A DNA stretch of 64,000 nucleotides from Escherichia coli. GTDB taxonomy: Bacteria > Pseudomonadota > Gammaproteobacteria > Enterobacterales > Enterobacteriaceae. Numbering within the stretch: the first letter of the stretch is position 1; every line of letters begins with the position of its first letter. Shown one piece after another: positions 59,318 to 59,366 of the stretch. Location: NCBI RefSeq assembly GCF_024700885.2, contig NZ_CP117016.1. One strand, given 5' to 3'. A program made the translations under genes and the position numbers. Below the pieces are notes generated by a model. It was not told where the DNA came from. It worked only from the letters and a program-made list of their open reading frames with translations, and made no database searches.

Positions 59318-59327
59318 AACCATACAT

Positions 59328-59360
59328 AAAAAAGCCGGGGATCATTCCCCGGCTTTTTTA
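59328..59360. terminator. bidirectional rho-independent terminator between nupC and yfeA
   Basis: AAAAAAGCCGGGG-atcatt-CCCCGGCTTTTTT: GC stem flanked by A-run and T-run, 11 bp after the nupC stop and 7 bp after the yfeA stop. Confidence 0.8.
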
Positions 59361-59366
59361 CGCCTG

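Follow-up and report, generated by a model that had tools for sequence, protein, structure and literature searches.

IS186, an insertion sequence of the IS4 family, reportedly has a hotspot in the lon promoter, described by saiSree et al. in 2001. Insertions at this promoter share a single position and are reported to occur in either orientation (PMC3045373). A passage of a further report gives the preferred target of IS186 as 5'-GGGG(N6/N7)CCCC, crediting Chong 1985 and saiSree 2001 (PMC6925257). Another IS186 copy is found in E. coli K-12 MG1655, where the annotation of NC_000913.3 places 'insertion sequence:IS186C', with the gene insL3 (b2394), between the convergent genes nupC (b2393) and pdeA (b2395); a preliminary description of the DNA discussed here had correctly placed an IS186 copy at this K-12 junction. 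Convergent bacterial genes can be served by bidirectional Rho-independent terminators, in which a GC-rich stem lies between an A-tract and a T-tract. Transcript 3' ends have mostly been mapped in K-12, in which IS186 interrupts the nupC-pdeA hairpin, and this split terminator makes K-12 a poor guide to the 3' ends of nupC and pdeA.

The nupC-pdeA junction considered here lies in a 64-kb stretch of E. coli DNA (the window, meaning the whole stretch that was analysed). Its intergenic spacer can be read, with a probability of about 95%, as the intact and unoccupied terminator shared by nupC and pdeA and as a target of IS186, into which the element has inserted in K-12 and in about 18% of complete genomes of the species. 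The empty site is an already known, ordinary strain-to-strain IS polymorphism. Its biological importance is very small: a known IS186 copy sets K-12 apart from this strain, in which the shared terminator is intact.

The nupC-pdeA spacer and its hairpin

The gene nupC occupies 58115-59317 on the plus strand, beginning at the K-12 start (58115) and ending with the stop codon TAA at 59315-59317. It encodes a nucleoside:H+ symporter of 400 aa that is 100% identical to K-12 NupC and passes the NCBIfam model TIGR00804 (486.8 bits, cut-off 442). Facing it on the minus strand, pdeA (yfeA) occupies 59367-61556, with the K-12 start at 61556 and the stop codon at 59367-59369. Its product, of 729 aa, differs from K-12 PdeA by a single residue (Y380 in the window, C380 in K-12). 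The protein carries degenerate GGDEF and EAL-type domains and is a putative c-di-GMP phosphodiesterase; its matches to EAL-type phosphodiesterase families score under the equivalog cut-offs. Identical DNA in many genomes carries the RefSeq labels nupC and pdeA.

The spacer between the two genes (59318-59366, sequence AACCATACATAAAAAAGCCGGGGATCATTCCCCGGCTTTTTTACGCCTG) measures exactly 49 bp. The junction is contiguous, with 100% identity to 25 listed genomes, and the 23-bp terminal repeat of IS186 does not occur on either strand anywhere in the 64-kb window. The preliminary description, which had placed nupC and yfeA/pdeA 49 bp apart with no insertion sequence between them, is borne out by these observations.

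A single hairpin fills nearly the whole spacer. A consensus scan predicts a bidirectional intrinsic terminator at 59327-59360, terminator-like on both strands and laid out as A6-GCCGGGGA-tcat-TCCCCGGC-T6. The A6 tract (59328-59333) is followed by the first stem arm GCCGGGGA (59334-59341), the loop TCAT (59342-59345), the second arm TCCCCGGC (59346-59353), and the T6 tract (59354-59359). Of the 8 bp in the core stem, 7 are G-C pairs, and pairing continues beyond the core to a total of 15 pairs. A U-tract lies directly 3' of the stem on both strands, provided by T6 for the plus strand and by A6, read as U6, for the minus strand. Predicted folding energies are -25.8 kcal/mol (z -5.55) for the plus strand and -31.1 kcal/mol (z -6.27) for the minus strand, and none of 200 shuffled sequences folded as well as the hairpin. 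Such a structure would be expected to terminate transcription arriving from both directions. The earlier claim of one bidirectional terminator in the spacer is thus apt as a description of the sequence, with terminator activity as its probable consequence.

The same stem contains an unoccupied IS186 target, GGGGATCATTCCCC (59337-59350), which fits GGGG(N6/7)CCCC. This is the only match to the consensus in the 64-kb window, where about 0.9 would be expected by chance; an unusual number of such sites in the window was accordingly rejected. The 10 bp that are duplicated on occupation correspond to 59339-59348, GGATCATTCC.

Elsewhere, the window and K-12 align colinearly between the yfc fimbrial genes and gltX (95-98% identity), with several local differences. 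The ypeC-mntH interval holds an IS3-family element of 1432 bp (55006-56437; orfA at 55048-55578, orfB at 55683-56405) that RefSeq labels IS1397 in identical DNA and that is absent from K-12. It interrupts a REP palindromic unit at its loop, where the sequence reads GCCTGATGCGACGC, then TAGT...TAGT, then GCGTCTTGTCAGGCCTAC, with TAGT as the 4-bp duplication. The window therefore carries an insertion sequence near nupC-pdeA: IS1397, in the window and not in K-12, stands about 3 kb upstream of the empty IS186 site, which is occupied in K-12. Adjoining the tRNA-Arg gene argW, about 5.6 kb (17034-22603) encodes a predicted oligosaccharide MFS permease, a fructokinase, an invertase of the sucrose-6-phosphate hydrolase family, and a LacI-type regulator, and the layout of this putative cluster is that of the csc sucrose-utilisation genes. 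K-12 has at this position the cryptic prophage CPS-53, dsdC, and most of dsdX. The yfc fimbrial region from yfcS to yfcV (2042-6142) shares just 77-80% identity with K-12 and appears to be a divergent fimbrial allele. The alignment to K-12 also breaks at 13820-13882, near yfdF, where the K-12 coordinates overlap by about 140 bp (2463238-2463380), which suggests a small repeat-associated indel.

Occupation of the junction by IS186

The K-12 junction displays the anatomy of an IS186 insertion in full. IS186C is 1339 bp long and is bounded by perfect 23-bp terminal inverted repeats, CATAAGCGCTAACTTAAGGGTTG, with the 10-bp direct duplication GGATAATTCC on both sides. It sits at the centre of the hairpin. 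On one side, the junction reads AAAAAAGCCGGGGATAATTCC followed directly by CATAAGCGCTAACTTAAGGGTTG, and on the other, CAACCCTTAAGTTAGCGCTTATG followed directly by GGATAATTCCCCGGTTTTTTTACGCC. The 1398 bp between the two genes in K-12 are accounted for exactly by the 49 bp of the spacer, the 1339 bp of IS186, and a target-site duplication (TSD) of 10 bp. The comparison with K-12 proposed in the preliminary description thus shows IS186C splitting the homologous hairpin, with GGATAATTCC duplicated. When the element and one duplicate are removed from the K-12 sequence, an 80-bp sequence is obtained in which 80 of 80 bases match natural E. coli genomes.

The G4-N6-C4 stem of the shared terminator doubles as a consensus target for IS186, which on insertion enters the hairpin centre, duplicates 10 bp, and splits the stem. 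Because of this split, neither nupC nor pdeA would keep its native terminator, a loss that we infer for both genes in K-12. For the empty K-12 allele as reconstructed, the folding energies are -23.4 and -24.4 kcal/mol; RNAs that span the two IS186 junctions of K-12 show no more stability than shuffled sequences (z 0.32 and -0.03). Repeated insertion at the nupC-pdeA site would likewise be explained by the target preference of the element. No paper was found in a literature search that combined IS186 with nupC.

Occupation of this site is no peculiarity of K-12, a point that refines the preliminary description: about 958 genomes show it, the element lies in either orientation, and two alleles of the hairpin are affected. 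A census covered 5,426 complete E. coli genomes, in which a junction was counted as uninterrupted when at least 80% of a 1.1-kb query was found in one piece. The junction is uninterrupted in 4,460 genomes. A nupC-to-IS186 junction in the K-12 orientation is present in 472, and IS186 stands at the same position in the opposite orientation in 465. The nupC flank is joined to the IS186 terminal repeat, in either orientation, in 958 genomes, a number that must include inherited copies, many of them in K-12 laboratory derivatives. IS186 occurs anywhere in the genome in 2,217 of the 5,426, and 3,209 have no IS186 at all. IS186 therefore occupies the terminator in about 18% of all the genomes in the census and in about 43% of those that bear the element.

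Two hairpin alleles are found among the occupied sites. The K-12-type allele (ATAA loop, G-T closing pair) was the only one among the first five occupied examples. A resistance of the window allele (ATCA loop, fully paired stem) to IS186 was considered and rejected, as a chimeric query built from the window's own flank brought up at least 12 genomes in which IS186 occupies this allele. For example, HUSEC2011 and strain 602354 carry IS186 on the window's allele, with the TSD GGATCATTCC on both sides, and HUSEC2011 without the element and one duplicate gives the window sequence exactly. The allele-specific base is present in both duplicate copies, and the insertions into the window allele are therefore separate from the K-12-type one. 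The alleles thus point to at least two independent IS186 insertions at nupC-pdeA, and orientations and alleles taken together probably indicate three or more. Some combinations of orientation and allele could have arisen by in-place inversion of the element or by recombination between strains. The nupC-pdeA terminator is an IS186 hotspot with recurrent insertions; its common state, unoccupied and pre-insertion, is the one seen in the window.

Two occupied genomes depart from the usual arrangement. In EM20-18-50 (NZ_CP063467.1), the right copy of the TSD is GGAGAGATCC instead of GGATAATTCC, with a normal left copy, and local mutation or an assembly error could account for the change. In ABWA45 (NZ_CP022154.1, 1801-3690), IS186 adjoins nupC on one side; on the other lies hokE, with the flank GGATTGCTCCCC and no pdeA. 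This arrangement looks like a large rearrangement through recombination of the nupC and hokE copies of IS186.

Ancestry of the empty site and alternative explanations

The duplication at the K-12 junction, together with the presence of the reconstructed site in natural genomes, identifies the K-12 state as derived and the uninterrupted state as the pre-insertion one. Relative to the insertion, the uninterrupted state is thus ancestral, as judged from this duplication logic and from how widely empty sites are distributed among E. coli lineages. The preliminary description had called the uninterrupted state ancestral, a view that stands, with a scope within E. coli, on the pre-insertion character of the site and its retention in 4,460 of 5,426 genomes. 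Genome contigs were also scanned with the hairpin and its flank for outgroup Escherichia. The sole match was NZ_VLXZ01000152.1, a 289-bp contig with 1.4x coverage in an assembly of Alkalicoccobacillus porphyridii, and this contig almost certainly represents E. coli contamination of that assembly.

Under the favoured reading, the strain of the window would never have been hit at the nupC-pdeA site, precise loss of an element being much less likely. The lineage might instead have carried IS186 here and lost it by precise excision, so that the empty state was secondarily restored. If the 10-bp duplicates recombined, the product would be exactly the window sequence, and the window's allele is occupied in other strains. 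However, precise excision of insertion sequences is rare, the empty state is that of the majority (4,460/5,426), and 3,209 of the 5,426 genomes are without any IS186. Moreover, the window junction bears no scar and is identical over 80 bp to about 800 other genomes. Secondary restoration is consequently very improbable. We regard as slightly less probable still a spacer with a further element besides the terminator (a small RNA, a regulatory site, or a REP element, for instance), in which the absence of the insertion sequence would be incidental. A weak promoter-like match on the minus strand (59370-59341, 9/12 positions) could be taken as a trace of such an element, but promoter-like matches are at the level of chance (2 observed vs 0.9 expected). 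Furthermore, the hairpin with its A and T tracts occupies 34 of the 49 bp, and the only Rfam matches at or above gathering score in 54000-64000 are two tRNA-Ala genes.

The reading of the spacer as an intact, never-occupied terminator and target is compatible with a broader proposal, which we consider doubtful. According to this proposal, few IS186 sites in natural E. coli would be hit as often and as independently as the nupC/pdeA hairpin, and occupancy of the hairpin would be recurrent and possibly selected, affecting the expression of pdeA or nupC rather than being neutral. If so, each insertion would remove the shared terminator and add a substrate for large IS186-mediated rearrangements, of which ABWA45 may be an instance. 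Irrespective of this proposal, presence, absence, and orientation of IS186 at the nupC-pdeA site can be used as a marker for typing IS186-bearing lineages.

Comparison with known systems

The nupC-pdeA site resembles the hotspot in the lon promoter in its GC-rich GGGG(N6/7)CCCC target and in repeated insertion at one position in both orientations (PMC3045373; and, for the target, the passage cited above from PMC6925257). The two sites differ in their setting. The lon site is a promoter, in which insertion is selectable, whereas the nupC-pdeA site is the shared terminator of convergent genes and has no known phenotype.

As a terminator, the spacer has the same GC-rich stem between an A-tract and a T-tract as the bidirectional Rho-independent terminators of other convergent bacterial genes, and both transcripts would likewise end in a hairpin followed by a U-run; at nupC-pdeA, this activity is predicted from sequence.

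The closest counterpart is the K-12 junction itself, which shares with the window the locus, the flanking genes, and the target hairpin. The hairpin alleles differ by two bases, K-12 having an ATAA loop and a G-T closing pair and the window an ATCA loop and a G-C closing pair. The window is without the 1339-bp element and without the second copy of the 10-bp duplication, and the point at which IS186C entered in K-12 is homologous to 59339-59348 of the window.
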